NCBI GenBank assembly: GCA_047619465.1
Contig: JBLHJW010000002.1
Location: forward strand, 1 to 42,638
Origin: Minisyncoccia bacterium
GTDB taxonomy: Bacteria > Patescibacteriota > Minisyncoccia > Phycocordibacterales > CSBR16-119
Direction of reading: 5' to 3'
Length of the DNA: 42,638 nt
Positions 9,512-27,908 of this stretch are shown here, piece after piece. The notes under the pieces are model-generated. The model was not told the origin of the DNA and searched no databases. It worked only from the letters and a program-made list of their open reading frames with translations. Numbering within the stretch: position 1 is the stretch's first letter; each line of letters starts with the position of its first letter. The translations under genes were made by a program, and so were the position numbers.

Positions 9512-10606
9512 ATGAAAACAAGTGAAGGAAAAAAAGTGTTTGTAGGAGTATCTGGAGGTGTAGATTCATCTGTTTCTTTAGCGTTGCTCCAGGAGCAGGG
9601 ATACGATGTGACCGGTGTTTTTATAAAGACCTGGCAGCCCGAATGGATAGAGTGCACTTGGCGTGATGAGCGTCGTGATGCCATGCGAGTATGTGCTCAC
9701 TTAGGCGTTGATTTTGTAACTCTTGATTTAGAAAAAGCATATAAGGAAGGTGTAGCTGATTATATGATTGCAGAATATCGATCAGGTAGAACTCCAAACC
9801 CAGACGTAATGTGCAATAAAGAAGTAAAATTCGGTGGATTTTTAGACTGGGCTCTGGAAAATGGCGCTGACTATATTGCAACAGGGCACTACACTAGAAA
9901 CAGTGATAAAGAAGGCCGCCAAAGAATGCTTGAGGGAAAAGATAAAAACAAGGACCAGTCTTACTTCCTATGGACGCTAACTCAAGACCAACTGAAGCAC
10001 ACAATTTTCCCAATAGGGGATATTCCAAAACCAAAAGTTCGAGAGCTTGCTGAGAAGTTCAATCTGCCGACAGCAAGCAAAAAGGACAGCCAAGGGGTGT
10101 GCTTTATTGGAGAGATAGATATGAAAGATTTTCTGGGTCACTATATAGATGAGAAGAACGGGGATGTTTTAAATACAGACGGAGAAGTCATCGGTGAACA
10201 CAACGGAGCTTTTCTTTTGACTATTGGTGAGAGACATGGATTCACTATCTCAAAAAAGGGAACAGAGGATAAAGCCCTATTCGTTGTAGAAAAGGATGCC
10301 GATAAAAATACTGTGACTGTTTCTGAGAAATCACCATTTGATGAGAAAGAAGGAAATACAGCTGGATATACAAAAGAAGTTTCATTGATTAAAACAAATT
10401 GGATTCCAACAGCCTTTCCTCCCTTTGGAAAGGACTTTGAGGCACGGGTACGGTATCGCGGTGAGCGACACAAATGTAACTTCATGCAGGTTAGAGATGA
10501 CACAGCTTTACTTGTTTTTGAAAATCCTGTTTGGGGTGTATCAGCCGGGCAATCAGTTGTTGTTTATGATAAAGAGGAGTGTATTGGGGGAGGTATTATC
10601 TCCTAG
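9512..10606 (+). CDS. mnmA: tRNA-specific 2-thiouridylase MnmA
   Basis: PP-loop VGVSGGVDSSV, KDQSYFL motif, catalytic Cys context. TACAAT lies 7 nt before the ATG. Confidence 0.95.
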   Translation: MKTSEGKKVFVGVSGGVDSSVSLALLQEQGYDVTGVFIKTWQPEWIECTWRDERRDAMRVCAHLGVDFVTLDLEKAYKEGVADYMIAEYRSGRTPNPDVMCNKEVKFGGFLDWALENGADYIATGHYTRNSDKEGRQRMLEGKDKNKDQSYFLWTLTQDQLKHTIFPIGDIPKPKVRELAEKFNLPTASKKDSQGVCFIGEIDMKDFLGHYIDEKNGDVLNTDGEVIGEHNGAFLLTIGERHGFTISKKGTEDKALFVVEKDADKNTVTVSEKSPFDEKEGNTAGYTKEVSLIKTNWIPTAFPPFGKDFEARVRYRGERHKCNFMQVRDDTALLVFENPVWGVSAGQSVVVYDKEECIGGGIIS

Positions 10607-16496: not shown

Positions 16497-16877
16497 ATGC
16501 GAGTTTTAGGTATTACAATTCCAGATGAAAAAAGAGTAGAAAGAGGCTTAACTGTACTATTTGGTATTGGTCTTTCTCAATCACAAAAAATGCTTGAAAA
16601 AGCAAAGGTGGACAAGAATAAAAAGGCGAAGGATCTAACCGAAGCAGAAGAGGCAACTCTTAGAAAGCTTATCGATGATATGACCCTAGAGGGAGACTTG
16701 AGACGAGAAGTAATTTCAAACATCAAGAGACTTAAAGATATTGAGTCATATCGTGGAAGTAGACACTCAAAAAGACTACCTGTTAGAGGTCAACGAACAA
16801 AGTCAAATTCTCGAACCGGTCGAGGAAATACTCGAAACACTATGGGGTCGGGAAAAACTAAGACAGACAAAAAATAG
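16497..16877 (+). CDS. rpsM: 30S ribosomal protein S13
   Basis: S13 sequence and conserved operon position. Confidence 0.95.
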   Translation: MRVLGITIPDEKRVERGLTVLFGIGLSQSQKMLEKAKVDKNKKAKDLTEAEEATLRKLIDDMTLEGDLRREVISNIKRLKDIESYRGSRHSKRLPVRGQRTKSNSRTGRGNTRNTMGSGKTKTDKK

Positions 16878-16889
16878 CCAGATAATAAT

Positions 16890-17324
16890 ATGGGAAAAAA
16901 ACGAATCATAAAAAAGTCCGGAGGGACAATGAATAGGGAGCTTCGAAATCGATCAGCTGGTCGACTAGGTAAGAGAAAGCTTACTTCTGGTATTTTGTAT
17001 GTTCAGGCAACTTTCAATAACACAAAAGCTATCTTCACTGACGATCAAGGTAATATGATTTTCGGATCATCTTCAGGGTCTCTTGGATTCAAAGGAGCAA
17101 AAAAGGGAACACCTTTTGCTGCTGGACGAGTTGGAGAACTACTAGGAGAAAAAGCCAAAGCCATTGGCGTAAAAGAAGTAGATATTATCGTGAAAGGGGT
17201 TGGTTCTGGTCGCGAGCCTACAATTCGTTCTTTCATGGGACATGGGATTGATATCAAGTCTATCAAGGATAGAACTCCGGTTCCACACAACGGTCCTAGA
17301 GCGCGTAAGCCACGAAGAGTTTAA
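16890..17324 (+). CDS. rpsK: 30S ribosomal protein S11
   Basis: YVQATFNNT..., GFKGAKKGTPFAA, PHNGPRARKPRRV. Confidence 0.95.
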   Translation: MGKKRIIKKSGGTMNRELRNRSAGRLGKRKLTSGILYVQATFNNTKAIFTDDQGNMIFGSSSGSLGFKGAKKGTPFAAGRVGELLGEKAKAIGVKEVDIIVKGVGSGREPTIRSFMGHGIDIKSIKDRTPVPHNGPRARKPRRV

Positions 17325-17339
17325 TTTAAATATATAATT

Positions 17340-17948
17340 ATGATAATCGGAGCAAAATATAAAATATGTCGTCGACTTGGTTCAGGTGTTTTTGAAAAAT
17401 GTCAAAACCAAAAGTTCTCTCTTTCAGAGGCTCGTCACGAAAAATCAAAAAGAGGAAAACGTCGTAAGCAGATTTCTGACTACGGACAACAGCTAATCGA
17501 AAAACAAAAAATTCGATTCTCTTACGGAATCTCAGAAAGACAGCTTAAAAACTACGCCAAAGAAGCAGCAAGCATGAAGAATGTTACTGCTAGAGAGGCT
17601 CTTTTCCAACTCCTAGAGTCTAGACTTGATAATACTCTATATCGAATGGGAATAGCTGTTACTCGCCCTCTAGCTCGACAAATGGCCTCTCACGGGCATT
17701 TTACAGTCAATGGCAGCAGAACAACAGTTCCGTCTTATAAGCTGAAAGCAGGTGATGTTGTTGCTCTTCGTGAAGGAAGCAAGTCACGAACTCTTTTCCA
17801 GAACATAGACAAGAAACTAGCAAAATATACATCTCCATCATGGTTGTCGTTTGATTCTAAGAACATATCAGGATCAATCACGGGACTGCCAGTGAACAAT
17901 GAAACATTCCTAGACTTCGGTTCGGTTCTTGAATTTTACAGTAGATAG
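17340..17948 (+). CDS. rpsD: 30S ribosomal protein S4
   Basis: S4 N-domain and S4 RNA-binding domain (RLDNTLYRMG...). Confidence 0.95.
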   Translation: MIIGAKYKICRRLGSGVFEKCQNQKFSLSEARHEKSKRGKRRKQISDYGQQLIEKQKIRFSYGISERQLKNYAKEAASMKNVTAREALFQLLESRLDNTLYRMGIAVTRPLARQMASHGHFTVNGSRTTVPSYKLKAGDVVALREGSKSRTLFQNIDKKLAKYTSPSWLSFDSKNISGSITGLPVNNETFLDFGSVLEFYSR

Positions 17949-18017
17949 TCTGATTAAAACACTTATCAATTTTTATTAGATTATAAATAACGATCTTTGG
18001 ATCAAACAAAAATCTCT

Positions 18018-19022
18018 ATGTCATCACACGAAATACTTTTACCATCAAAACCACGTCTAGTTACAGAAGACGGAAACAAAGCTATATACGAAATAGATGG
18101 TCTTTATCCTGGGTATGGTCACACTCTAGGGAACTCTCTACGAAGAATTATACTTTCATCTCTACCAGGAGCTGCAATTACAAAAATAAAGGTTAATGGC
18201 GCAGGTCATGAATTTGAAGTTCTAGAAGGTGTACAAGAAGACGTTATAAACATAATTCTTAACCTAAAGAAGGTTCGTTTTAAATTAATCACTGGAGAAG
18301 CTCAAGTTGTGACTCTTTCTGCAAAGGAAGGTGTTGTAACAGCAAAGAGTATAACAGTTCCTGGTCAAGTTGAAATACTTAATGAAGATCAGTATATTGC
18401 AACTGTCACAGACAAGAAGAAAACTTTAGAAATTGAAATGACTGTTGAGCAAGGTCTAGGTTTTATCCAAAAAGCAGAAATCCAAAAAGAGAAAATGGAG
18501 TTGGGTCAAATTGCTATGGATGCAATCTTCTCGCCTGTTCGACGTGTTTCCTATGAAGTAGAAAATATGCGTGTCGGTGATAATACAAACCATAACCGAC
18601 TTAGGATTTCTATTGAGACTGATGGAACATACACTCCAAAGGAAGCTCTAGAAAAGTCAGTTGAGATTATGATTCTACAACTACAATCTATTCACGAGTT
18701 TAAAGGGCTTGATGAGATAAAAGAAGAAATGGCTGCTATAGAGAAAGAGAAAGCTGCTATCGCTGAGTCTGTTAAAGAAGCCAAAGAAGAAGAGGGGGAA
18801 GAAGAGGAGGTTAATGAGGAAGAAGAAGTTTTAAAAACTCGAGTGGAAGATCTAAATCTGTCTACACGTACACAGAACGCCCTTGATATCGCAAAGATCC
18901 GAACAGTTGGAGGAATTGCTCGAAAGTCAAAAGAAGATCTCTTAAACCTTGAAGGATTGGGAGATAAGGGTATTCAGGAAATCAAGCGAGCACTATCAAA
19001 TTTTGGAATATTGCTTAAATAA
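18018..19022 (+). CDS. rpoA: DNA-directed RNA polymerase alpha subunit with an extended acidic NTD-CTD linker
   Basis: GYGHTLGNSLRRILLSS in the NTD and a CTD HhH (LNLSTRTQNAL). The start is ATG 18018 or TTG 17997. Confidence 0.95.
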   Translation: MSSHEILLPSKPRLVTEDGNKAIYEIDGLYPGYGHTLGNSLRRIILSSLPGAAITKIKVNGAGHEFEVLEGVQEDVINIILNLKKVRFKLITGEAQVVTLSAKEGVVTAKSITVPGQVEILNEDQYIATVTDKKKTLEIEMTVEQGLGFIQKAEIQKEKMELGQIAMDAIFSPVRRVSYEVENMRVGDNTNHNRLRISIETDGTYTPKEALEKSVEIMILQLQSIHEFKGLDEIKEEMAAIEKEKAAIAESVKEAKEEEGEEEEVNEEEEVLKTRVEDLNLSTRTQNALDIAKIRTVGGIARKSKEDLLNLEGLGDKGIQEIKRALSNFGILLK

Positions 19023-19068
19023 GTATAAGCTATTGCAAATTCAGAAAAAATCAGTAAACTACTAAACC

Positions 19069-19425
19069 ATGCGACATCATAACAAAAACCGAAAATTTGG
19101 ACGAAAGCGAGATGTACGAAACGCTCTTATGAAGTCGTTGGCTATTTCTCTTATTCGACATGAGAAAATCCAGACAACAGAAGCCAAAGCTAAGTCTCTA
19201 CGACCTATGATTGAGAAGCTTATAACAAAGTCTCTTATGGGGACTCTTGCTTCGCGTAACATTGTTCGATCACGTCTGATTAACCAGAACGCAGAGACAA
19301 AGAAGCTGGTTGATGATATCGCTCCACGATACAAGGATGTTAATGGTGGATATACACGAATTACAAAAATGCCTCAGCGTCTATCAGATGGAGCTAGAAT
19401 GGCTATAATCGAATTTGTTAAATAA
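19069..19425 (+). CDS. rplQ: 50S ribosomal protein L17
   Basis: MRHHNKNRKFGR..., GGYTRI motif. Confidence 0.95.
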   Translation: MRHHNKNRKFGRKRDVRNALMKSLAISLIRHEKIQTTEAKAKSLRPMIEKLITKSLMGTLASRNIVRSRLINQNAETKKLVDDIAPRYKDVNGGYTRITKMPQRLSDGARMAIIEFVK

Positions 19426-19427
19426 AC

Positions 19428-19781
19428 ATGGAACCAAAAACTTATACAATTGATGCAACAGGAGAAAGCGTTGGTCGCGTAGCGAGCAAGGTAGCTGTTA
19501 TTCTTATGGGAAAGAATGCAACAGATTTTATGAACAACAAAGTTGCAAATCACAAAGTTACTATTGAGAATGCTTCTAAAGCAAAAATATCTCAGAAGAA
19601 GATGAAGACTACAGAGTACTCACAGTATTCTGGATACCCAGGAGGTTTGAAATTTGTTACTATGGAAAGAGTTATAGAGAAGTTTGGTTATAGTGAAGTG
19701 TTTAAGAAGGCTGTCTACGGAATGCTTCCAGGAAACAAGCTTCGATCACCTAGAATGAAGAATCTAACAATCACTGAATAA
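19428..19781 (+). CDS. rplM: 50S ribosomal protein L13 (short)
   Basis: L13-like sequence (GRVASKVAVILMGK, YSGYPGG, MLPGNKL). Confidence 0.9.
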   Translation: MEPKTYTIDATGESVGRVASKVAVILMGKNATDFMNNKVANHKVTIENASKAKISQKKMKTTEYSQYSGYPGGLKFVTMERVIEKFGYSEVFKKAVYGMLPGNKLRSPRMKNLTITE

Positions 19782-19783
19782 TT

Positions 19784-20191
19784 ATGGCTACTACTAAAAA
19801 ATACACAGAATCAATAGGACGACGAAAAACTGCCACAGCCCGAGTAAGACTTACTGAAGCTAAGCAACTTTCTATAGTAGTTAACGATAAGGAATCTTCT
19901 ATATATTTTCCTACAACAGAACTTCAGAAGATCATCCACGACTCTTTCTCACGAACAAAGATAGACGATGGATATAGCATTACTGTTCTTGTTTCTGGTG
20001 GAGGAATACATTCACAGGCAGAAGCTGTACGACATGGAATTGCTCGATCACTTGTAAAGATCGGAGGAGATGAAAATAAGATTCTTCTGAAAGTAGAAGG
20101 ATACCTAAAAAGAGACCCTCGATCTAAAGAGCGACGAAAGGCTGGAAAGGCTGGAAAGGCTCGAAAAGGAAAGCAGTGGTCAAAACGATAA
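19784..20191 (+). CDS. rpsI: 30S ribosomal protein S9
   Basis: GRRKTATARV, GGGIHSQAEAVRHGIARSL, C-terminal ...KR. Confidence 0.95.
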   Translation: MATTKKYTESIGRRKTATARVRLTEAKQLSIVVNDKESSIYFPTTELQKIIHDSFSRTKIDDGYSITVLVSGGGIHSQAEAVRHGIARSLVKIGGDENKILLKVEGYLKRDPRSKERRKAGKAGKARKGKQWSKR

Positions 20192-20207
20192 TAACTATTT
20201 TAATTTT

Positions 20208-20232
20208 AAAACACTCGAAAGAGTGTTTTTTT
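20208..20232 (+). terminator. Rho-independent terminator ending the ribosomal block
   Basis: AAAACACTC-GAAA-GAGTGTTTTTTT. Confidence 0.85.
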
Positions 20233-20254
20233 GTTTGTCTGTTATACTACAGCT

Positions 20255-21874
20255 ATGAAAATTAATTCACTGATCTCAAAGCAAACAACATTACTTCTAA
20301 TTCTTGCAATTTCTTTTGCAACACTTTTCTTACCTTTAACAAGTGTCCAAGCTGCAACGCTAAAAACAGGCATGGACGCTAGCGATGTAATCGGTTCTCC
20401 GAGAACATTCACAACAACTGCTGCAACCATCACCTCAAGTGGTTTTACTTTTCCCATTGACACTTATTTAGACACAACGAATAACTACTTATTCACTATG
20501 TCGCAAATATCTAATCGTGTCCTTGTTTTTAATCTTAACGCCGATCACACTCTGATTGACTACACAGCTGACTATGTTCTTGGTCAGACAGACTTTACTT
20601 CAAGCAGCACGTCAACGACAGCTTCAACATTTTCAAAAATAAGATCTATTACTGTGGATGAGGCAAACCAGAGGCTGTATGTTAGTGACACTGGATCAAG
20701 CCGAGTTCTTATGTTTGACTATTCAGTCAGTTTTTCAAATGGAATGAGTGCTTCAAGGGTTCTTGGTCAAGCCAACTTTACCGCTAGTGCTGCTACTGCA
20801 ACACAGTCAGGGATGGAAGAGCCATCCTCAATTGAATACGACGCCACGAATGAGAGATTGTTTGTTTTAGATGCCTTTGGCGAAAGGGTCCTCATTTTTG
20901 ACACATCAGATGGTGTGACAAACAATGAGGCCGCTATTAATGTTCTTGGTCAAGACGATTTTATTTCAAACGGAGGTACAACAACTCAAAGCGGTATAAG
21001 TAACACTGAAGATGTGTCATATGACTCTGATACATCATACTTGTATGTTGCCGATCCCGCTAACAAAAGGATTATGGTTTGGGATTTGTCATCTGTGGTT
21101 ACAAATGGAATGGATGCAAGTTACGTTCTTGGTCAAGCAGACTTTACTTCAGATACTGATTTTGGGACAACACAAAAATCTGTAAGTAATTTAACGTCGG
21201 TTTCTGTCGACACGGTAAATAATCGTTTGTATGTTGGTGACACTAATCGAGTGCTCGTCTTCGACATCTCATCAGGTGTCTCAAACAATATGGATGCAAC
21301 ATATGTTATCGGTCAAGCCGACTTTGTAAGTAATTCAGGAAACAGGGGAGGGTCTGCTGGAGCGAATACATTGTTTTATGTTTTTGGTGTGGATATAAAC
21401 GAGTTAGACAATATTCTTTATGTTTCTGATACAGGGAATACCCGAGTTCTAATCTTCGACCTCTCAGCCACAGTCTCATCATCCCCATCAACCGGCCTCT
21501 CCTACACCCACCCACCACTCTGCAAAGCCACAATCACTCCAAACACAATAACAGCAGGAGAAGAAACAACACTAAGCTGGAACACAACATGGCCCACAGA
21601 CAGACAATCAAACTACTACACCAAAGTACCAGGAGAAGGACTATACTCTTCCAGTGTAAACTCAATATCAATACAACCAAAACACACTACAACCTACAGA
21701 CTAGCTACATTCAACCTATGGGGAGCAAACTTCTGCGAAGCTACAGTAGAAGTACTAGACACCGAAGGAGAAGAAGTAACCTCTGAAAGAAACTCTATAC
21801 TGACTGCTTCAGCTGCAGGGAACTCATTCTTTAGACCAATTATTTCGTTCTTTGCTGGATTGTTTGTGAGGTAA
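20255..21874 (+). CDS. Secreted NHL-repeat beta-propeller protein, paralog A, with a conserved C-terminal Ig-like module and hydrophobic tail
   Basis: Signal peptide ending LTSVQAAT. About six blades carry GMDASYVLGQADFTS and NRVLVFD-type NHL motifs. TGtTATACT lies 6 nt before the ATG. Confidence 0.85.
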   Translation: MKINSLISKQTTLLLILAISFATLFLPLTSVQAATLKTGMDASDVIGSPRTFTTTAATITSSGFTFPIDTYLDTTNNYLFTMSQISNRVLVFNLNADHTLIDYTADYVLGQTDFTSSSTSTTASTFSKIRSITVDEANQRLYVSDTGSSRVLMFDYSVSFSNGMSASRVLGQANFTASAATATQSGMEEPSSIEYDATNERLFVLDAFGERVLIFDTSDGVTNNEAAINVLGQDDFISNGGTTTQSGISNTEDVSYDSDTSYLYVADPANKRIMVWDLSSVVTNGMDASYVLGQADFTSDTDFGTTQKSVSNLTSVSVDTVNNRLYVGDTNRVLVFDISSGVSNNMDATYVIGQADFVSNSGNRGGSAGANTLFYVFGVDINELDNILYVSDTGNTRVLIFDLSATVSSSPSTGLSYTHPPLCKATITPNTITAGEETTLSWNTTWPTDRQSNYYTKVPGEGLYSSSVNSISIQPKHTTTYRLATFNLWGANFCEATVEVLDTEGEEVTSERNSILTASAAGNSFFRPIISFFAGLFVR

Positions 21875-21917
21875 AAAACTTTGTTTAAAAAGCACCCGAG
21901 AGGGTGTTTTTTTCTAT
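21452..21917 (+). repeat. Direct repeat copy A (3' module of paralog A plus its terminator)
   Basis: Aligns by eye with 24989-25452. Exact runs of 33, 63 and 79 nt (the 79-nt run is 21681-21759). Confidence 0.9.
21886..21913 (+). terminator. Rho-independent terminator
   Basis: CACCC-GAGA-GGGTG followed by TTTTTTT. Confidence 0.8.
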
Positions 21918-22008
21918 GCATTCATAATTTAGATAAATAATTACTCTAATTGACTTAAATAAATTATGTGTTATATTTAAATTAAATTCTAACAAAAACT
22001 AAAGTACC

Positions 22009-23700
22009 ATGAAAAAAATGAAGAGAAGTATGCAACTTTGTGTTGTGGCGCTGCTATGCGCGAGTATGCTTGATATAACGGTGAGCAATGCCCAAAATGG
22101 TATACAACACCTTGAAAAGTTCCCGGGATCTGAAGATTTTTCGTTTCAAACAAGTGGGATAAAATTTACTATTGTTGATGCGATGAATAAATCGCAAAAC
22201 TCAGAGATGCCATATATTGCGGGTACCCCTGGTGCCTCTCAATTCAATGCATCAATTGCAACAATTGGAGCGGGTCTTCTTATTCCAGATAGTGCTACAC
22301 CTTTCGAGTTGCCTAAGAACAGACCAGTCATGTGGTTTTGGAATATTCAAAATCATATTATTGCGAAACTCCCCGGTTCAATTCGGGACTTAAAGTTTTA
22401 CCCTGTGGAGGGTTCAATGGGTGATACGACCTACTACTGGTCATACCAAGACCTTCAACGGATTGAAGTTATTGGTCAAGACACGAATTACTACGTAACC
22501 GTGGTAATTGGTCAGGATACGACATGGTCTCGAGAGATTAGATTTGAGAATAATGTGAATTATTTCCTTGATGCGGAGGCAGATGGTCATGATCATTTTT
22601 TCAATCCTAATTTTCCTGGTGGTCTCGTTGCCTATGTGTGGATGCTCTATGAGGAGAGGGATATGTCCGCCTTTGATTGTGGTGGTCAGCCGTGCTCTGA
22701 AGCAATGGTAATGGGGATTGAATATGTCCAGATTAAAAACTCTACTGGTGAAACACTTCGTCAGTACAAGCTGGATGATTTTGATCAGTCTGAAATCATA
22801 GAATATTATCTCACAGATAGAGAGGATCCATATTTTGCTTCTCAGCAATACTGGTTGAATTCAGTGGATATGCCACAGAATAACGACAGCGTTGTGTTGT
22901 GTAGTGCCAGAAGGATTAATGACATCTTTGCCTATGGTCCTTCAGGGGTTCAGTTTAGATTCAAGGATCTTGCCTGGACGGGAGGTGACAGTGTCACCGT
23001 GGCTGGGCAACACTCTGCAAAGATTCTCTCCTACGATGAGTTTCAGATGGATTTTATCTTTTTCAATAATGCTGTACCCGAGGCGGGAGGAGACACTATT
23101 TCCGAGGCAATTATTGCGAGAGTGGATTTCCAGAATCAGACCAGACAGATTCTTTCGAGGTATGGAGGAGAATATGGTTTGTACGGAAATGCTATGGGTA
23201 ATGCTGGCGCGATTGGAAGCTCTGTTTCCATGTGCTACGGCTTCGGCTTCGAGCATATGTATCCTCTTGGAAATCCTTCAGGTCTAGAATACTCGACTTT
23301 GGACGGAAGTGTCTTGAGAGAGATTTACCTGCCTGACTTCAACTTCTCTGCGGGGATGTATCTTCATGAGCCAAAGAACATGGAGTGGCTCGTAGACATA
23401 CTCGCTGTAGAAGATTCCGTAAATTTGGGGGGACGGTGGATGTATCGAGTGGATGACCCGCTTGCTGTGAGAGAGGTTGCAGAGGTTAAGAGCTTACTGC
23501 TCTATCCAAATCCAGCAACTAACATCGTTACTCTTACAGAGAAAGTTCACCAGGTGAGACTTTTTGCCATTGATGGTAAAGAGGTCTTCGCTCCACGGAG
23601 AGGCAAGGTTCTTGATGTAAGCTCTCTTGTTAAGGGGGTATACGCCATTCATTTGGCACATCCAGACGGTTTGTTTGTTGAAAGATTGATTATCCAGTGA
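22009..23700 (+). CDS. Secreted protein with a T9SS (Por) type-A C-terminal sorting domain
   Basis: Signal peptide MKKMKRSMQLCVVALLCASML...AQ. The last 68 aa (23494-23697), LLLYPNPATNIVTLT...VRLFAIDGKEV...LVKGVYAIHL...ERLIIQ, match the T9SS CTD pattern (yPNPa, D..Gk.v, l..GvY). Confidence 0.85.
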   Translation: MKKMKRSMQLCVVALLCASMLDITVSNAQNGIQHLEKFPGSEDFSFQTSGIKFTIVDAMNKSQNSEMPYIAGTPGASQFNASIATIGAGLLIPDSATPFELPKNRPVMWFWNIQNHIIAKLPGSIRDLKFYPVEGSMGDTTYYWSYQDLQRIEVIGQDTNYYVTVVIGQDTTWSREIRFENNVNYFLDAEADGHDHFFNPNFPGGLVAYVWMLYEERDMSAFDCGGQPCSEAMVMGIEYVQIKNSTGETLRQYKLDDFDQSEIIEYYLTDREDPYFASQQYWLNSVDMPQNNDSVVLCSARRINDIFAYGPSGVQFRFKDLAWTGGDSVTVAGQHSAKILSYDEFQMDFIFFNNAVPEAGGDTISEAIIARVDFQNQTRQILSRYGGEYGLYGNAMGNAGAIGSSVSMCYGFGFEHMYPLGNPSGLEYSTLDGSVLREIYLPDFNFSAGMYLHEPKNMEWLVDILAVEDSVNLGGRWMYRVDDPLAVREVAEVKSLLLYPNPATNIVTLTEKVHQVRLFAIDGKEVFAPRRGKVLDVSSLVKGVYAIHLAHPDGLFVERLIIQ

Positions 23701-23744: not shown

Positions 23745-23773
23745 GTATTTATTTTTTCTGCTAAACTATAGTG

Positions 23774-25411
23774 ATGAAAATCAAATCAATATTATCTAAA
23801 CAAACAACATTAATCCTTATCCTTACAATTTCTTTTGCAACTCTGTTTCTTCCACTAACATCACTTCAGGCTGCAACGATTTCAAATGGCATGGAAGCGA
23901 GTAATGTTATTGGTCAATCAGACTTTACCTCAAACACAGCGCTTATGGATCAGTCTCATATCATTGTCCCAACTGCTATTGCATACGATACGGTGAATGA
24001 CATATTATTCGCCGCAGGTTTAATTTTTGATGATGAAGACAACGACGCGTTTAGAATCGTCACATATGATCTATCAAGTGGAATCACAGACGGTGTGAAT
24101 GCCACGAACGTCATAGGTCAGGCTAACTTTACCGCAGCTGTTACAGGGACTACTGCTGGAACATTTAGCACACTGATCTCTGATGTTGAATATGATTCAG
24201 TGAATGAAAGACTTTTTGTTTCTGACTATTTTAACTCTCGAGTTCTTGTTTTTGACCTTTCGGGTGGAATTACAAATGGGATGAGTGCGACTTACGTTCT
24301 GGGTCAAGCTAATTTAACAACACTTGATGTGCCTGGTTCCAATCTTGCCACAAGTACGGTAGGTTTTCCTGATAGTCTTGCTTATGACTCTCTCAATGAC
24401 ATGTTGTTTGTTGGGGACACTTTTTATGAGCGAGTAGTGGCGTTTGATTTGTCAGGAGGAATCACAAATAACATGGATGCCTCATATGTTATCGATGATA
24501 CTGACTTTAATACTCCGGTTGCCGGTTTAACACAGAGCGCGTTTCAAAATCCAAAGGGTCTTGAATATGACTCTCAAAATAAGTACCTGTATGTTGCCTC
24601 AGACCTTCAAAACAGAACACTTGTCTATGATTTTTCAGGCGGAGTATCAAATGGGATGAGCGCAAGTTATGTGCTTGGTCAAGCAGACTTTACCTCAAAC
24701 ACAGCGACAGTTAGCGCTTCAGGGTTAAGTGGCCCATCAGATATTGCTTACGATCATTCATCTTTGACACTTTTTATTTCTGACTCATCTAATAACAGAG
24801 TTCTTGGCTACGATATATCAGGTGGAATCACAAATGGAATGGAAGCCAGCAACGTTCTTGGTCAATCGGATTTTTTATCAAATTCAACAGGTCTTACATC
24901 TAGGACACTTAATGAGCAAGGTAAGATGGTTTTTGATCCAACCTCTGGTAGTCTTCTTGTCGCCGATACGTCAAATTATAGAGCTTTGATCTTCGACCTC
25001 TCAGCCACAGTCTCATCATCCTCAGAAAACGGCCGAGGCTACATCCACCCACCACTCTGCGAAGCCACAATCACTCCAAACACAATAACAGCAGGAGAAG
25101 AAACAACACTAAGCTGGAACACAAACTGGCCTACAGAGAACCAAAACACCTACTACTCTAAAGTTCCAGGAGAGGGACTCTTCTCAAGCAAGGTAAACTC
25201 AATATCAATACAACCAGAACACACTACAACCTACAGACTAGCTACATTCAACCTATGGGGAGCAAACTTCTGCGAAGCTACAGTAGAAGTACTAGATGAA
25301 AATGGAGAAGAAGTAACATCAAACAATAACTCAAGACTTACTGCTGGAGTTTCTAATTCACCTATTGTTAGAGCTGTAACTTCTTGGTTTGCTGGTTTGT
25401 TTGTGAGGTAG
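23774..25411 (+). CDS. Secreted NHL-repeat beta-propeller protein, paralog B
   Basis: Same architecture as 20255-21874. The signal peptide and last ~140 aa are conserved and the propeller core is diverged. TGcTAAACT lies 6 nt before the ATG. Confidence 0.85.
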   Translation: MKIKSILSKQTTLILILTISFATLFLPLTSLQAATISNGMEASNVIGQSDFTSNTALMDQSHIIVPTAIAYDTVNDILFAAGLIFDDEDNDAFRIVTYDLSSGITDGVNATNVIGQANFTAAVTGTTAGTFSTLISDVEYDSVNERLFVSDYFNSRVLVFDLSGGITNGMSATYVLGQANLTTLDVPGSNLATSTVGFPDSLAYDSLNDMLFVGDTFYERVVAFDLSGGITNNMDASYVIDDTDFNTPVAGLTQSAFQNPKGLEYDSQNKYLYVASDLQNRTLVYDFSGGVSNGMSASYVLGQADFTSNTATVSASGLSGPSDIAYDHSSLTLFISDSSNNRVLGYDISGGITNGMEASNVLGQSDFLSNSTGLTSRTLNEQGKMVFDPTSGSLLVADTSNYRALIFDLSATVSSSSENGRGYIHPPLCEATITPNTITAGEETTLSWNTNWPTENQNTYYSKVPGEGLFSSKVNSISIQPEHTTTYRLATFNLWGANFCEATVEVLDENGEEVTSNNNSRLTAGVSNSPIVRAVTSWFAGLFVR

Positions 25412-25452
25412 AAAACTTTGTTTAAAAAACACCTGAAAGGGTGTTTTTTTCT
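24989..25452 (+). repeat. Direct repeat copy B (3' module of paralog B plus its terminator)
   Basis: Partner of 21452-21917. Confidence 0.9.
25424..25450 (+). terminator. Rho-independent terminator
   Basis: CACCT-GAAA-GGGTG followed by TTTTTTT. Confidence 0.8.
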
Positions 25453-25506
25453 TGCGGAAAGTTGAATGTTGTACTAGACTCATATCAAACAAGAAAAGTA
25501 GGAGAT

Positions 25507-26172
25507 ATGCAAGACAAAAACAGTATTTTGGTATCGACAGGTAAGATATGCCTATGTTGTGGTGGGAGAGGAAACCACATACAAAAAGAACATTATATGG
25601 AAACTCTGGATAATTACGCTGGTTTGGATCATATCACTATTCCAATGGGGCCTGCCTCAACAAGCCAAGTGGAAACAATCAGGTTTATTTGTCCAACGTG
25701 CGGGTTTAACCCAAGCTTCGTAAGAATCGATGGATCCGAAATGTACAACGAGGAAGATGAAAAAAGACTCTTCAAAATTTTAAAGGATACGTACCCTGCA
25801 AAGTTATCAATGTTCGATGATCGGGTTGATCTGTTTAAAAAAGATCATAATAGAGAATTTGTTCTTTTTGGGTTGACTACTCTTGTCGCTCCTGGATCTG
25901 TAAGAGTTAAGAAATCAAAGGATGATAAATTATTTGCCTTTGGTGAAAATCCATACTGGCTTCAAGAGCGTAAAGTGGTAATCTCATGGTCAGGGACTAA
26001 ATGGATTTCTATTTCAGAGAGAGAATCGGCTGCAGCTGGTGGCATGAAAAATAAACCAGTAGACAATGATGAGCCGCTTCCAGAAGAAGCTGTACCCATG
26101 ATGGAGTTCTATATACAGGGAGATCGCTACACAGAATCTTTCTTTATTGGAAAAAACTTCTTAGAAGAATAG
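25507..26172 (+). CDS. Hypothetical protein with an N-terminal zinc ribbon
   Basis: CLCCGG...CPTCG cysteine pairs. AGGAG lies 4 nt upstream of ATG 25507, one of the few SD sites in the window. The tracked start at 25441 lies inside the preceding terminator. Confidence 0.7.
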   Translation: MQDKNSILVSTGKICLCCGGRGNHIQKEHYMETLDNYAGLDHITIPMGPASTSQVETIRFICPTCGFNPSFVRIDGSEMYNEEDEKRLFKILKDTYPAKLSMFDDRVDLFKKDHNREFVLFGLTTLVAPGSVRVKKSKDDKLFAFGENPYWLQERKVVISWSGTKWISISERESAAAGGMKNKPVDNDEPLPEEAVPMMEFYIQGDRYTESFFIGKNFLEE

Positions 26173-26180
26173 CTATTACA

Positions 26181-26207
26181 AGTCCCGCCATGAGCGGGAC
26201 TTTTTTA
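26181..26207 (+). terminator. Rho-independent terminator
   Basis: AGTCCCGC-CATGA-GCGGGACT followed by TTTTT. Confidence 0.85.
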
Positions 26208-26240
26208 TATCTGGTGTCCTACACATGCTATAATAGTGAA

Positions 26241-27908
26241 ATGTTACAAAAAGAAGCATTGCAAATACTCCAGACAGGAGCAAATATATTCCTCACTGGA
26301 GCTCCGGGGGCAGGGAAGACTTATGTTCTAAATCAGTACATTGAGTACCTCAAAGAACACGCTATTAATGTAGCGGTGACTGCTTCTACTGGTATTGCAG
26401 CGACTCATGTGGGTGGAGTTACTATTCACTCCTGGGCTGGTATAGGTATCAAGGATGACATGAGTCAGGAGGAGCTCGCTGGACTAGTAGAGAAGAAATA
26501 TCTTCACAAGCGTTTTCGAGATACCAAGGTTCTAGTCATAGATGAAATCTCCATGCTTGGTGGCGGAACACTGGATCTAGTGAACAAGGTCTGCAAGAAG
26601 TTTAAGAAAGACACACGGCCATTTGGAGGCTTGCAGGTGGTTCTAGTTGGTGACTTCTTCCAGCTTCCTCCTATTTCCAGGGGAGGAGAATCGGTCTTTG
26701 CCTTTTCTTCAAATACTTGGAAAGAGCTCGCACCTATTGTCTGCTATCTTGGTGAACAACACCGTCAGGAGGATGAGAAACTTCTTTCGCTACTATCTGC
26801 TATCCGTCAGGGTGATGGACTGGAGAATGGTGAAGTTCTGAAAGAGAGAATGGATGTAGAGTTCGAAGATGTTATCTCCGCCACAAAACTATACACTCAC
26901 AATGCTGATGTAGATTTAATAAATGCTCGTGAGCTAGAGAAACTCGAAACAGAAGAAGAAATATACCCCATGGAAACACGTGGACCAGTAACTCATGTTC
27001 AGAAACTTATCGACTCATGTCTATCTCCAGAAGCACTCCTTCTGAAGAAGGGTGCGATAGTTATGTGTACAAAGAATAACTTTGAAAGAGGATATGTAAA
27101 TGGAACCATGGGTGAGATTGTAGACTTCGATGCCAAGACTGGCGATCCAATAATAGTTACAAATGATGGAAGAGAGATTCTAATCTCTTCTGCTACCTGG
27201 GCTATTCAAGATGGAGAAAAGACTCTTGCAGAAGTAACACAGATTCCGCTTCGACTGGCTTGGGCTATCACAGTTCACAAGTCTCAGGGTATGTCGCTAG
27301 ACGCCGCAGAGATAGATCTCGGAAAAGCTTTCGAGTACGGTCAGGGGTACGTAGCGCTTTCTCGTGTGAGGTCTTTCGATGGATTGAAGCTTATAGGATT
27401 CAACTCTGATGCATTACTGATTCACCCTCTAGTTCTAGATGAAGACAAGCGATTCCGATCTAGGTCAACTCAAATAAAAGAGTATCTATCTAAGAAAACA
27501 GAAAAAGAACTAGACGCATCCAAAAAGACATTTATAGAAAACAGCGCCGGCTCAGTAGAGAAGGTAGACTGGAAAGCCGCAGAAGCTCTAGAGGAGAAAA
27601 TCCCATCCCACCACAGAACCCGGTCTTTGATCGAGGAAGGCAAGAAACTCGACGACATTGCCAAAGACCGTGAACTTACAAAAGAAACCGTACTCACTCA
27701 TATAGAAAAGCTCCTTACAGAAGGAACTATCACCCTGAACGATATTTCGTACATACGACCCCGAGGAAAGAAGTTCGCCGATGCACTAGCAGCATTCCAA
27801 GAAGTCTACAACGAAACCGGCGAACTCCACCTCTCCCCAGTAAAGAACAAAACAAAAAATACTTCGTATTATGATATACAGCTTGCCAGATTATTTTTAG
27901 ATAAATAA
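26241..27908 (+). CDS. Pif1/RecD-family SF1B DNA helicase with a C-terminal HTH domain
   Basis: Walker A GAPGAGKT, Walker B VLVIDEISM, GDFFQLPP, TVHKSQG, YVALSR. TGcTATAAT lies 6 nt before ATG 26241. Confidence 0.9.
   Translation: MLQKEALQILQTGANIFLTGAPGAGKTYVLNQYIEYLKEHAINVAVTASTGIAATHVGGVTIHSWAGIGIKDDMSQEELAGLVEKKYLHKRFRDTKVLVIDEISMLGGGTLDLVNKVCKKFKKDTRPFGGLQVVLVGDFFQLPPISRGGESVFAFSSNTWKELAPIVCYLGEQHRQEDEKLLSLLSAIRQGDGLENGEVLKERMDVEFEDVISATKLYTHNADVDLINARELEKLETEEEIYPMETRGPVTHVQKLIDSCLSPEALLLKKGAIVMCTKNNFERGYVNGTMGEIVDFDAKTGDPIIVTNDGREILISSATWAIQDGEKTLAEVTQIPLRLAWAITVHKSQGMSLDAAEIDLGKAFEYGQGYVALSRVRSFDGLKLIGFNSDALLIHPLVLDEDKRFRSRSTQIKEYLSKKTEKELDASKKTFIENSAGSVEKVDWKAAEALEEKIPSHHRTRSLIEEGKKLDDIAKDRELTKETVLTHIEKLLTEGTITLNDISYIRPRGKKFADALAAFQEVYNETGELHLSPVKNKTKNTSYYDIQLARLFLDK

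Follow-up and report, generated by a model that had tools for sequence, protein, structure and literature searches.

The stretch of DNA analyzed here (the window, 42.6 kb) belongs to an uncultured, ice-dwelling Minisyncoccia bacterium and contains two beta-propeller genes, gene A and gene B, that end in the same 3' module (coordinates in table 1). The pattern of identity among its copies suggests that this module is probably kept alike within genomes by segmental gene conversion. The module is an uncatalogued C-terminal unit of a multigene family of signal-peptide proteins in Paceibacteria-type bacteria of the Candidate Phyla Radiation (CPR), and an extreme richness in A and C on the coding strand characterizes one large subclass of modules.

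Two Copies of the Module within the Window

The sequence ATCTTCGACCTCTCAGCCACAGTC begins at position 21452 and again at position 24989, and at this offset of 3537 nt the two genes share exact runs of 33 nt (21452-21484), 63 nt (21525-21587) and 79 nt (21681-21759), as well as runs of 16 and 24 nt. The three longest runs had been counted by hand in the preliminary description of the window, and the counts were confirmed. The domain (21452-21759) is 89.6% identical between copy A and copy B (276/308, gapless) compared with about 55% for the propeller cores and 74.6% for the signal-peptide region, in agreement with the earlier claim that the propeller DNA is far more diverged than the module. The whole repeat had been described as near-identical, a term that fits the exact runs and the domain but neither the linker and tail (21760-21871, 66.9% identity) nor the 466-bp repeat in its entirety (83.6%); the stop codon and terminator (21872-21917) are 87% identical.

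The 32 differences within the domain (16 nonsynonymous and 6 synonymous codons) are confined to two patches, 21485-21507 and 21588-21655. Such clustering is not expected by chance: the probability of a longest run of at least 79 nt is 0.0015, and the sum of the three longest runs was reached in 0/20000 random placements of the differences. Clustered and mostly nonsynonymous differences between near-identical paralogs, located at the 3' end of a gene, are also what would be expected of the variable region of a diversity-generating retroelement (DGR) where both genes are rewritten from one template repeat, and CPR bacteria often carry DGRs. The 42.6-kb window contains neither a YxDD motif nor a reverse-transcriptase domain or Pfam match, the differences involve all bases rather than only adenines, and long A-rich runs are perfectly identical, all of which makes a DGR a very improbable explanation.

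Probable Gene Conversion among Module Copies

Copies of the module from the same genome or sample are 89-98% identical, compared with 66-78% for pairs from different genomes (further loci are designated by L numbers and proteins by P numbers). At sites that encode the same residue, codon identity is 0.90 between the two copies of the window (W_A/W_B, one contig), 0.94 between L002 and L003 (one bin, 98% DNA identity) and 0.91 between L006 and L007 (one sample), in each case against 0.53-0.55 expected from the shared bias in composition; A/C-rich modules of different genomes display values of 0.50-0.70, against an expectation of 0.52-0.56. The L006 and L007 genes encode unrelated N-terminal domains (an NHL propeller and a PD40-like domain, respectively), and despite this the two genes are 98.3% identical over their final 402 nt, up to the stop codon. 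In a further close copy, the L015 module from another sample (protein P0003), the DNA is a mosaic of blocks that run, in order, B, A, B (15 consecutive sites), A (9 consecutive sites) and B, with about two private changes in the domain. In the protein P0001, patches of the B type occur together with a tail of the A type.

The source runs point in the same direction. The unitig that carries the 63-nt run has a depth of 61.7 compared with 8.6 for the adjacent single-copy propeller, the words of the module are about 7- to 20-fold deeper than the flanks, and the summed depth over the module reaches 100-230. Unitigs break at the module borders and their loose ends run into P0001-like and P0003-like sequences. 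A multi-copy module in which exact stretches are shared in differing combinations is the signature of segmental gene conversion. On this reading, the copies within one genome would exchange short stretches by nonreciprocal homologous recombination, events that are deduced from the observed sequence pattern, and such an exchange of short stretches would leave the module identical patch by patch while the propellers diverge.

An alternative without any conversion is an old tandem duplication followed by fast divergence of the propellers, with the module preserved by purifying selection and codon constraint. The protein sequence of the module is conserved across the family, and codon constraint alone results in 52-56% identical codons at same-residue sites. 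This falls well short of the codon identity within the window, where the 63- and 79-nt runs are free of silent changes over 47 consecutive codons, and between-genome pairs with a residue identity of 0.78 reach a codon identity of only 0.58-0.70. Together with the L006/L007 pair, where the likeness is placed behind unrelated N-terminal domains, and the block mosaic of L015, these values leave a duplication without conversion as an unlikely scenario.

Some facts weigh against gene conversion. No conversion event or junction was observed directly, and the two adjacent modules of L016 are only 74% alike. Furthermore, all sequences are derived from short-read metagenome assemblies in which the module repeat splits the unitig graph into pieces of 60-100 nt, and because the repeat fragments the graph some of the mosaic patterns could be path choices of the assembler. 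Taken to its extreme, a collapsed or chimeric consensus of the repeat might have been threaded onto both genes, inflating their similarity and creating the mosaics. The excess depth of the module words and the presence of 47 short unitig pieces over 581 nt in one run are in line with such an artefact. On the other hand, copies A and B differ at 32 sites in two patches and hence were not collapsed, exact unitigs match the window without a mismatch at 21454-21554 and 21525-21587, and the likeness within samples recurs in independent NCBI, JGI and ENA assemblies. The high word multiplicity is itself direct evidence for identical stretches in several copies, and both the multiplicity and the contrast within versus between samples are independent of assembly paths. 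An assembly artefact as the source of the pattern is therefore improbable, if somewhat less so than a duplication without conversion.

Gene conversion had been proposed as an ongoing process in the preliminary description, and this proposal is supported by the identity at silent sites (0.90 versus 0.55 expected), the patchy differences, the L015 mosaic and the within-sample pairs. The process appears to reach beyond the two genes to the protein family at large. The mosaic origin that had been suggested holds in part: there are mosaic copies and a shared, recombining C-terminal module, but the scarcity of T does not point to a recent foreign source. A third suggestion, that recombination between the two direct repeats could delete the intervening gene, found no support, as no clean 3537-bp joint was present in the Logan contigs of four runs, although contigs cannot show rare forms. 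The contig joints that were listed carry unknown sequence between their two sides and fit other members of the family that share the signal peptide and the module. Recombination between direct repeats spaced by 3.5 kb, with deletion of the intervening gene, is mechanistically possible.

The protein P0020 (L008, 2138-3670) has a non-propeller N-terminal part. Its module is A/C-rich in the second half only, and this half matches the L001 module, an arrangement that resembles what conversion of an unbiased copy by a biased donor would leave behind. In L016, a run of eight G (9960-10005) divides the second NHL/module gene into two open reading frames (ORFs); a sequencing error, decay to a pseudogene or an on/off switch prone to slippage could each account for this.

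Module Family, Fold and Putative Role

An exhaustive profile search (E <= 0.001), with a query that included the last NHL blade, identified 1484 proteins. Most of these match via the last NHL blade, and the complete module is present at the C-terminus of about 25 cluster representatives. Word-indexed protein searches recovered only two to four short relatives. The N-terminal domains of the module proteins vary and include NHL propellers, BNR/Sortilin-like repeats, PD40/Tricorn-like repeats, DUF5122 and others, and the named relatives belong to genome bins of Paceibacteria and other CPR bacteria. The module had initially been described as shared by the two propeller genes; both indeed carry copies, but it is not private to them, and an entire protein family carries it as a multi-copy C-terminal unit. 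No description of the module, nor of concerted evolution in CPR surface proteins, was found in the literature.

Conserved features of the module are a Y-x-x-P-P-x-C motif, a second cysteine within G-A-N-F-C and a linker motif N-S-x-L-T-A. The tail (e.g., FFRPIISFFAGLFVR) consists of a hydrophobic stretch of about 19 residues, which contains Arg and Pro, and a terminal Arg or Lys. An AlphaFold2 model based on an alignment of 24 sequences predicts an eight-strand beta-sandwich with a predicted local distance difference test score (pLDDT) of 94-97 for residues 11-90, and places the linker and two short helices only with low confidence. A Foldseek search with the model returned a probability of 1.0 to the immunoglobulin (Ig) domains of CD22, PECAM and FGFR and to PKD domains, at a TM-score of about 0.5. 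According to this model, the domain has an Ig-like/PKD-type beta-sandwich fold. The sequence search of the PDB with the module returned nothing significant, the C-terminal part of genes A and B has no Pfam or NCBIfam match, and the module does not match the sorting domain of type A of the type IX secretion system (T9SS; PF18962, TIGR04183) at E <= 0.1.

The architecture of the proteins suggests that the module may serve as a stalk and as a surface anchor or sorting unit for varied passenger domains. Traits that may recall a tripartite sorting signal are the NSxLTA motif, the hydrophobic stretch and the terminal Arg or Lys; there is no NCBIfam match and no sortase is encoded in the window, which was the only DNA inspected for one. 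The missing database matches and the low-confidence model of the tail count against an anchor or sorting role.

Local A/C-Rich Composition

A change-point search on third codon positions identified an A/C-rich segment at 21449-21793 in gene A (0.91 versus 0.45 outside the segment, log-likelihood ratio 46) and at 24989-25336 in gene B (0.86 versus 0.42, ratio 39), and thus recovered the sharp compositional breakpoints that had been noted earlier near 21452 and 24989. Nowhere else in the window is the DNA as A/C-rich as in the two modules, and the composition returns to ordinary in the linker and tail. Third positions within 21452-21763 consist of A 0.53, C 0.385, G 0.03 and T 0.06, compared with A 0.35, C 0.14, G 0.17 and T 0.34 in the other genes of the window, and the overall base content of the module includes 0.33 C and 0.13 G. 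All two-fold pyrimidine-ending codons of the module end in C (21/21, compared with 36-38% in the rest of the window), all two-fold purine-ending codons end in A (10/10), and the four-fold sites contain no G. When codons for the module protein were resampled from the usage of the window, an A+C content of 0.556 +/- 0.016 was obtained, and the observed value is 0.705 (z = 9.3). The ribosomal protein genes of the window show ordinary codon usage, indicating that the A/C bias is not the set of preferred codons of the organism.

The same switch at third positions was found in L001, L002, L003, L006, L007, L008b, L012, L015 and L016a, including modules that share only 47-70% of their residues with copy A. 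In L008, the bias covers only the second half of the domain, and it is absent from L010, L013, L014 and L016b. These bias-free modules and the 74% pair of L016 show that neither homogenization nor bias is universal. The variable patches of the window copies are as A/C-rich as the shared runs; a tie between the bias and the most recent conversion tracts was rejected for this reason, and the equal bias of patches and runs indicates a long-term property of the module rather than of its latest tracts.

Comparisons between genomes bear on how the bias is preserved. Where the residue is conserved, just 49% of four-fold sites agree, the most common change is between A and C (59/122), and G is almost absent. 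The silent sites have thus turned over and yet stay within A and C (partly T), indicating that the bias is maintained and was not passively inherited from a donor. This is relevant to the possibility that the module was acquired as a foreign cassette, from a virus or a different organism, and retains the codon usage of its donor. A sharp compositional boundary at the start of the module and its occurrence behind unrelated N-terminal domains would fit such an origin. It is contradicted by silent sites that are randomized between lineages while remaining A/C, by a strand-asymmetric bias that no genome-wide codon usage explains, and by the ordinary housekeeping genes that flank the module genes in the window, with no mobile-element genes among them. 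In addition, no relative was found in 2.9 million viral contigs, and a viral origin was rejected on this ground. A foreign cassette is accordingly given little credence.

Several other potential explanations of the bias were tried and rejected. An embedded structured RNA has no Rfam match, and the fold z-scores are -0.07 (sense) and +1.29 (antisense). An overlapping or antisense ORF fails because no alternative frame is open across the homologs. The antisense G-quadruplex motif GGTGGGTGGGTG is present in copy A and absent from copy B; since it is not conserved, it is regarded as a by-product of C richness. Translational optimization was dismissed based on the ordinary codon usage of the ribosomal protein genes, and amino acid composition as the sole cause based on the resampling. 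A promoter scan for antisense transcription gave no matches above those in shuffled sequences.

Possible Causes of the Bias

The compositional data are compatible with a mutational origin, in which changes of G to A and of T to C on the coding strand would generate the bias; this explanation is tentative and held with low confidence, and is slightly favored over selection on the mRNA. The antisense strand would be repeatedly single-stranded during recombination and its C and A would be deaminated. A strand-asymmetric pressure probably maintains the bias over the recombining stretch and shifts the protein toward Thr as well. The Thr content is 19.6% in biased modules and 8.5% in unbiased ones, and Val, Phe and Gly are lower in the biased modules. 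The bias is co-extensive with the recombining tract, which suggests recombination as the source of the single-strandedness.

A more far-reaching and rather doubtful extension is that the A/C-rich composition is a footprint of recombination itself, or an adaptation to it, and that the module is a dedicated recombination cassette. The antisense strand of the module, when invading or displaced, would accumulate C to T and A to G changes by deamination. RecA prefers G/T-rich single strands, a preference from which the antisense strand might benefit. A cassette of this kind would allow CPR bacteria to swap passenger domains onto a common surface anchor while keeping the anchor uniform. To our knowledge, a local equivalent of the replication-linked strand asymmetry within a gene has not been described before.

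As the main alternative, the A/C richness may have been selected at the RNA level, as a non-folding, G/U-poor stretch or as a C-rich, G-poor tract that resembles a Rho-loading site, and might aid the translation of the last domain or control the fate of the transcript. This is a possibility of limited likelihood. The sense RNA of the module folds at -41.7 kcal/mol compared with -76.3 kcal/mol for the neighboring 312 nt, the C and G contents are as expected of such a tract, and the bias persists through the turnover of silent sites. These observations are countered by the lack of a specific structure (z about 0) and of an Rfam match, by ribosomal protein genes without such codon choice, and by related modules that lack the bias.

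Genomic Context

Genes A and B are separated by a single gene with a T9SS-type sorting domain (table 1).

Table 1. Coordinates of the Two Module Genes, Their Parts and the Intervening Gene (positions within the window)
Feature	Coordinates	Strand	Description	Basis
Gene A	20231..21874	+	Signal peptide, six-bladed NHL beta-propeller, C-terminal module	ORF list, Pfam NHL, blade periodicity
Gene A, N-terminal signal-peptide region	20255..20395	+	74.6% identical to 23774-23914; multi-copy in the source metagenome	
Copy A, A/C-rich segment	21452..21763	+	End of last blade, short linker, Ig-like beta-sandwich (PPLC...NFC Cys pair); putative homogenized core of the repeat	
Copy A, linker and C-terminal tail (..NSILTASAAGNSFFRPIISFFAGLFVR)	21764..21871	+	Ordinary composition; 67% identity to copy B	
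Gene A, stop codon, 3' untranslated stretch, hairpin and T-run terminator	21872..21917	+	87% identical to 25409-25452	
Intervening gene	22009..23700	+	Signal peptide, arylsulfotransferase-like propeller (below Pfam cut-off), T9SS-type C-terminal sorting domain; outside the repeat	
Gene B	23771..25411	+	Architecture as gene A; likely start ATG 23774	
Copy B, A/C-rich Ig-like module segment	24989..25300	+		Exact runs, composition, change-point
Copy B, linker and C-terminal tail (..NSRLTAGVSNSPIVRAVTSWFAGLFVR)	25301..25408	+		Composition, identity
Gene B, stop codon and terminator hairpin	25409..25452	+		

The ORF of gene A was called from a TTG at 20231, and the N-termini of its homologs point to the ATG at 20255 (MKINSLISKQTT...) as the likely start. 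Both genes belong to the NHL-repeat beta-propellers, with PF01436 (NHL) scores of 36.5 bits for gene A and 37.1 bits for gene B (cut-off 20) and a blade period of 183 nt. Their conserved N-termini follow the consensus MKI..SKQTTL.LIL.ISFATLFLPLTS.QA. The words of the signal-peptide region have a depth of 39.5 compared with about 9 (run X1) and are therefore about 4-fold over-represented. With both the signal peptide and the module conserved, the family can be described as two conserved ends around a variable middle.

The intervening gene scores 32.8 bits for Por_Secre_tail (cut-off 27) and 30.9 bits for TIGR04183 (cut-off 23). It has the same depth as the flanks (9.5-10.8), which shows that it is truly collinear with them. 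A word-indexed protein search found no relatives of this gene, and it has more G at third positions than the neighboring genes. A second and otherwise unrelated Por_Secre_tail gene directly follows the module gene of L014 (4767-6128).

Terminator hairpins with the common pattern AAAAACACYYGARAGRGTGTTTTTTT are located after rpsI (20199-20237), gene A (21880-21918) and gene B (25417-25455); the last carries one arm change that is compatible with a G-U pair. The next ORF (25441-26172) was called from a GTG at 25441, inside the gene B terminator, and translation more probably begins at a later ATG (MQDKN...); neither Pfam nor NCBIfam has a model that matches its product. A helicase of the Pif1 family that carries an HTH_40 domain at its C-terminus is encoded at 26190-27908, two genes downstream of gene B. 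A similar helicase is found a few genes from the module gene in L010 (L010, 1-42), which may be plain synteny; Pif1 helicases act in recombination.

Module genes are located next to or inside ribosomal protein operons at three independent loci: after rpsI in the window (16497-20230), after rpsG in L014 (2071-4674), and between rplB and rpsS in L016 (6479-11172). The insertion in L016 breaks one of the most conserved bacterial gene orders. No reverse transcriptase, sortase, transposase or integrase is encoded in the 42.6 kb of the window, the DNA of which was detected in ice and seawater metagenomes.

Comparison with Known Systems

A close parallel is found in outer-membrane paralogs of Helicobacter pylori (babA/babB and sabA/sabB/hopQ), the 3' segments of which are in concerted evolution by gene conversion. 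In both cases genes for surface proteins (putative ones here) have diverged middles and conserved ends, the likeness of the 3' ends is greater inside one genome than across strains, and chimeras arise, here probably, by nonreciprocal recombination; the conserved C-terminal part of the H. pylori proteins anchors the protein, to which the module can be likened. The differences are a monoderm-type CPR bacterium as the host, an Ig-like domain with a tail instead of a beta-barrel, and a module that is shared by unrelated passenger domains. We know of no report of an extreme A/C-rich silent-site composition for the bab genes, in which the module also differs.

Segmental gene conversion of surface antigens is known from the vlsE/vls cassettes of Borrelia and the pilE/pilS genes of Neisseria (PMC9159922, PMC13463697). 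The exchange is likewise short-patch, mosaic and nonreciprocal among related copies of a surface-protein gene, and vls also displays a strong strand asymmetry of composition across the DNA that recombines. In these systems the exposed part of the protein is varied from silent cassettes into one expression site, whereas here a conserved module of complete genes appears to be homogenized, and these genes each look expressible. The skew of the module is one of A+C versus G+T and not of G versus C, and the module contains no conserved G-quadruplex motif.

With respect to its putative role, the module resembles the C-terminal domain of type A of the T9SS (Por_Secre_tail, TIGR04183), which is a conserved C-terminal beta-sandwich on many secreted proteins with differing passengers, and the tripartite sortase and exosortase signals, which combine a short motif (here NSxLTA), a hydrophobic stretch and a terminal basic residue. 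It differs from both in having no Pfam or NCBIfam match, in the Arg and Pro within the hydrophobic stretch and in the absence of a sortase from the window, and the true Por_Secre_tail domain of the neighboring gene is a different sequence family. The archaeal S-layer protein 1L0Q (YVTN propeller and PKD domain), among the best Foldseek matches, shares the order of a propeller followed by an Ig-like/PKD sandwich. The sequence identity to 1L0Q is 15% and the TM-score about 0.48, the propeller repeat here is NHL, and no tail comparable to that of the module is described for 1L0Q.

The composition of the module has a counterpart in the A/C-rich strand of vertebrate mitochondrial DNA, where third positions of genes are A/C-rich, T-poor and nearly free of G. 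Deamination of C and A on the opposite strand, during its time in the single-stranded state, is held responsible for that asymmetry. The mitochondrial asymmetry spans the whole replicon and follows replication, whereas the asymmetry of the module is restricted to about 310-345 nt inside a gene.

Significance

Overall, the system appears to combine a known kind of evolution, the concerted evolution of conserved ends in surface-protein paralogs, with two apparently new elements, the module family and a strictly local A/C-rich silent-site composition. Across lineages, G and T are avoided at silent sites in a local and strand-asymmetric manner, which provides a clean test case from nature for telling mutational and selective causes of codon usage apart. 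Should this avoidance be linked to recombination, the strand that gene conversion exposes could be read from composition alone. CPR bacteria (Patescibacteria) lead a life attached to other cells, and understanding of their surface proteins is poor. The module marks a family of secreted CPR proteins and itself appears to evolve in concert within genomes, and such a module represents both a recurrent cause of broken or chimeric metagenome assemblies and a route for the shuffling of passenger domains.

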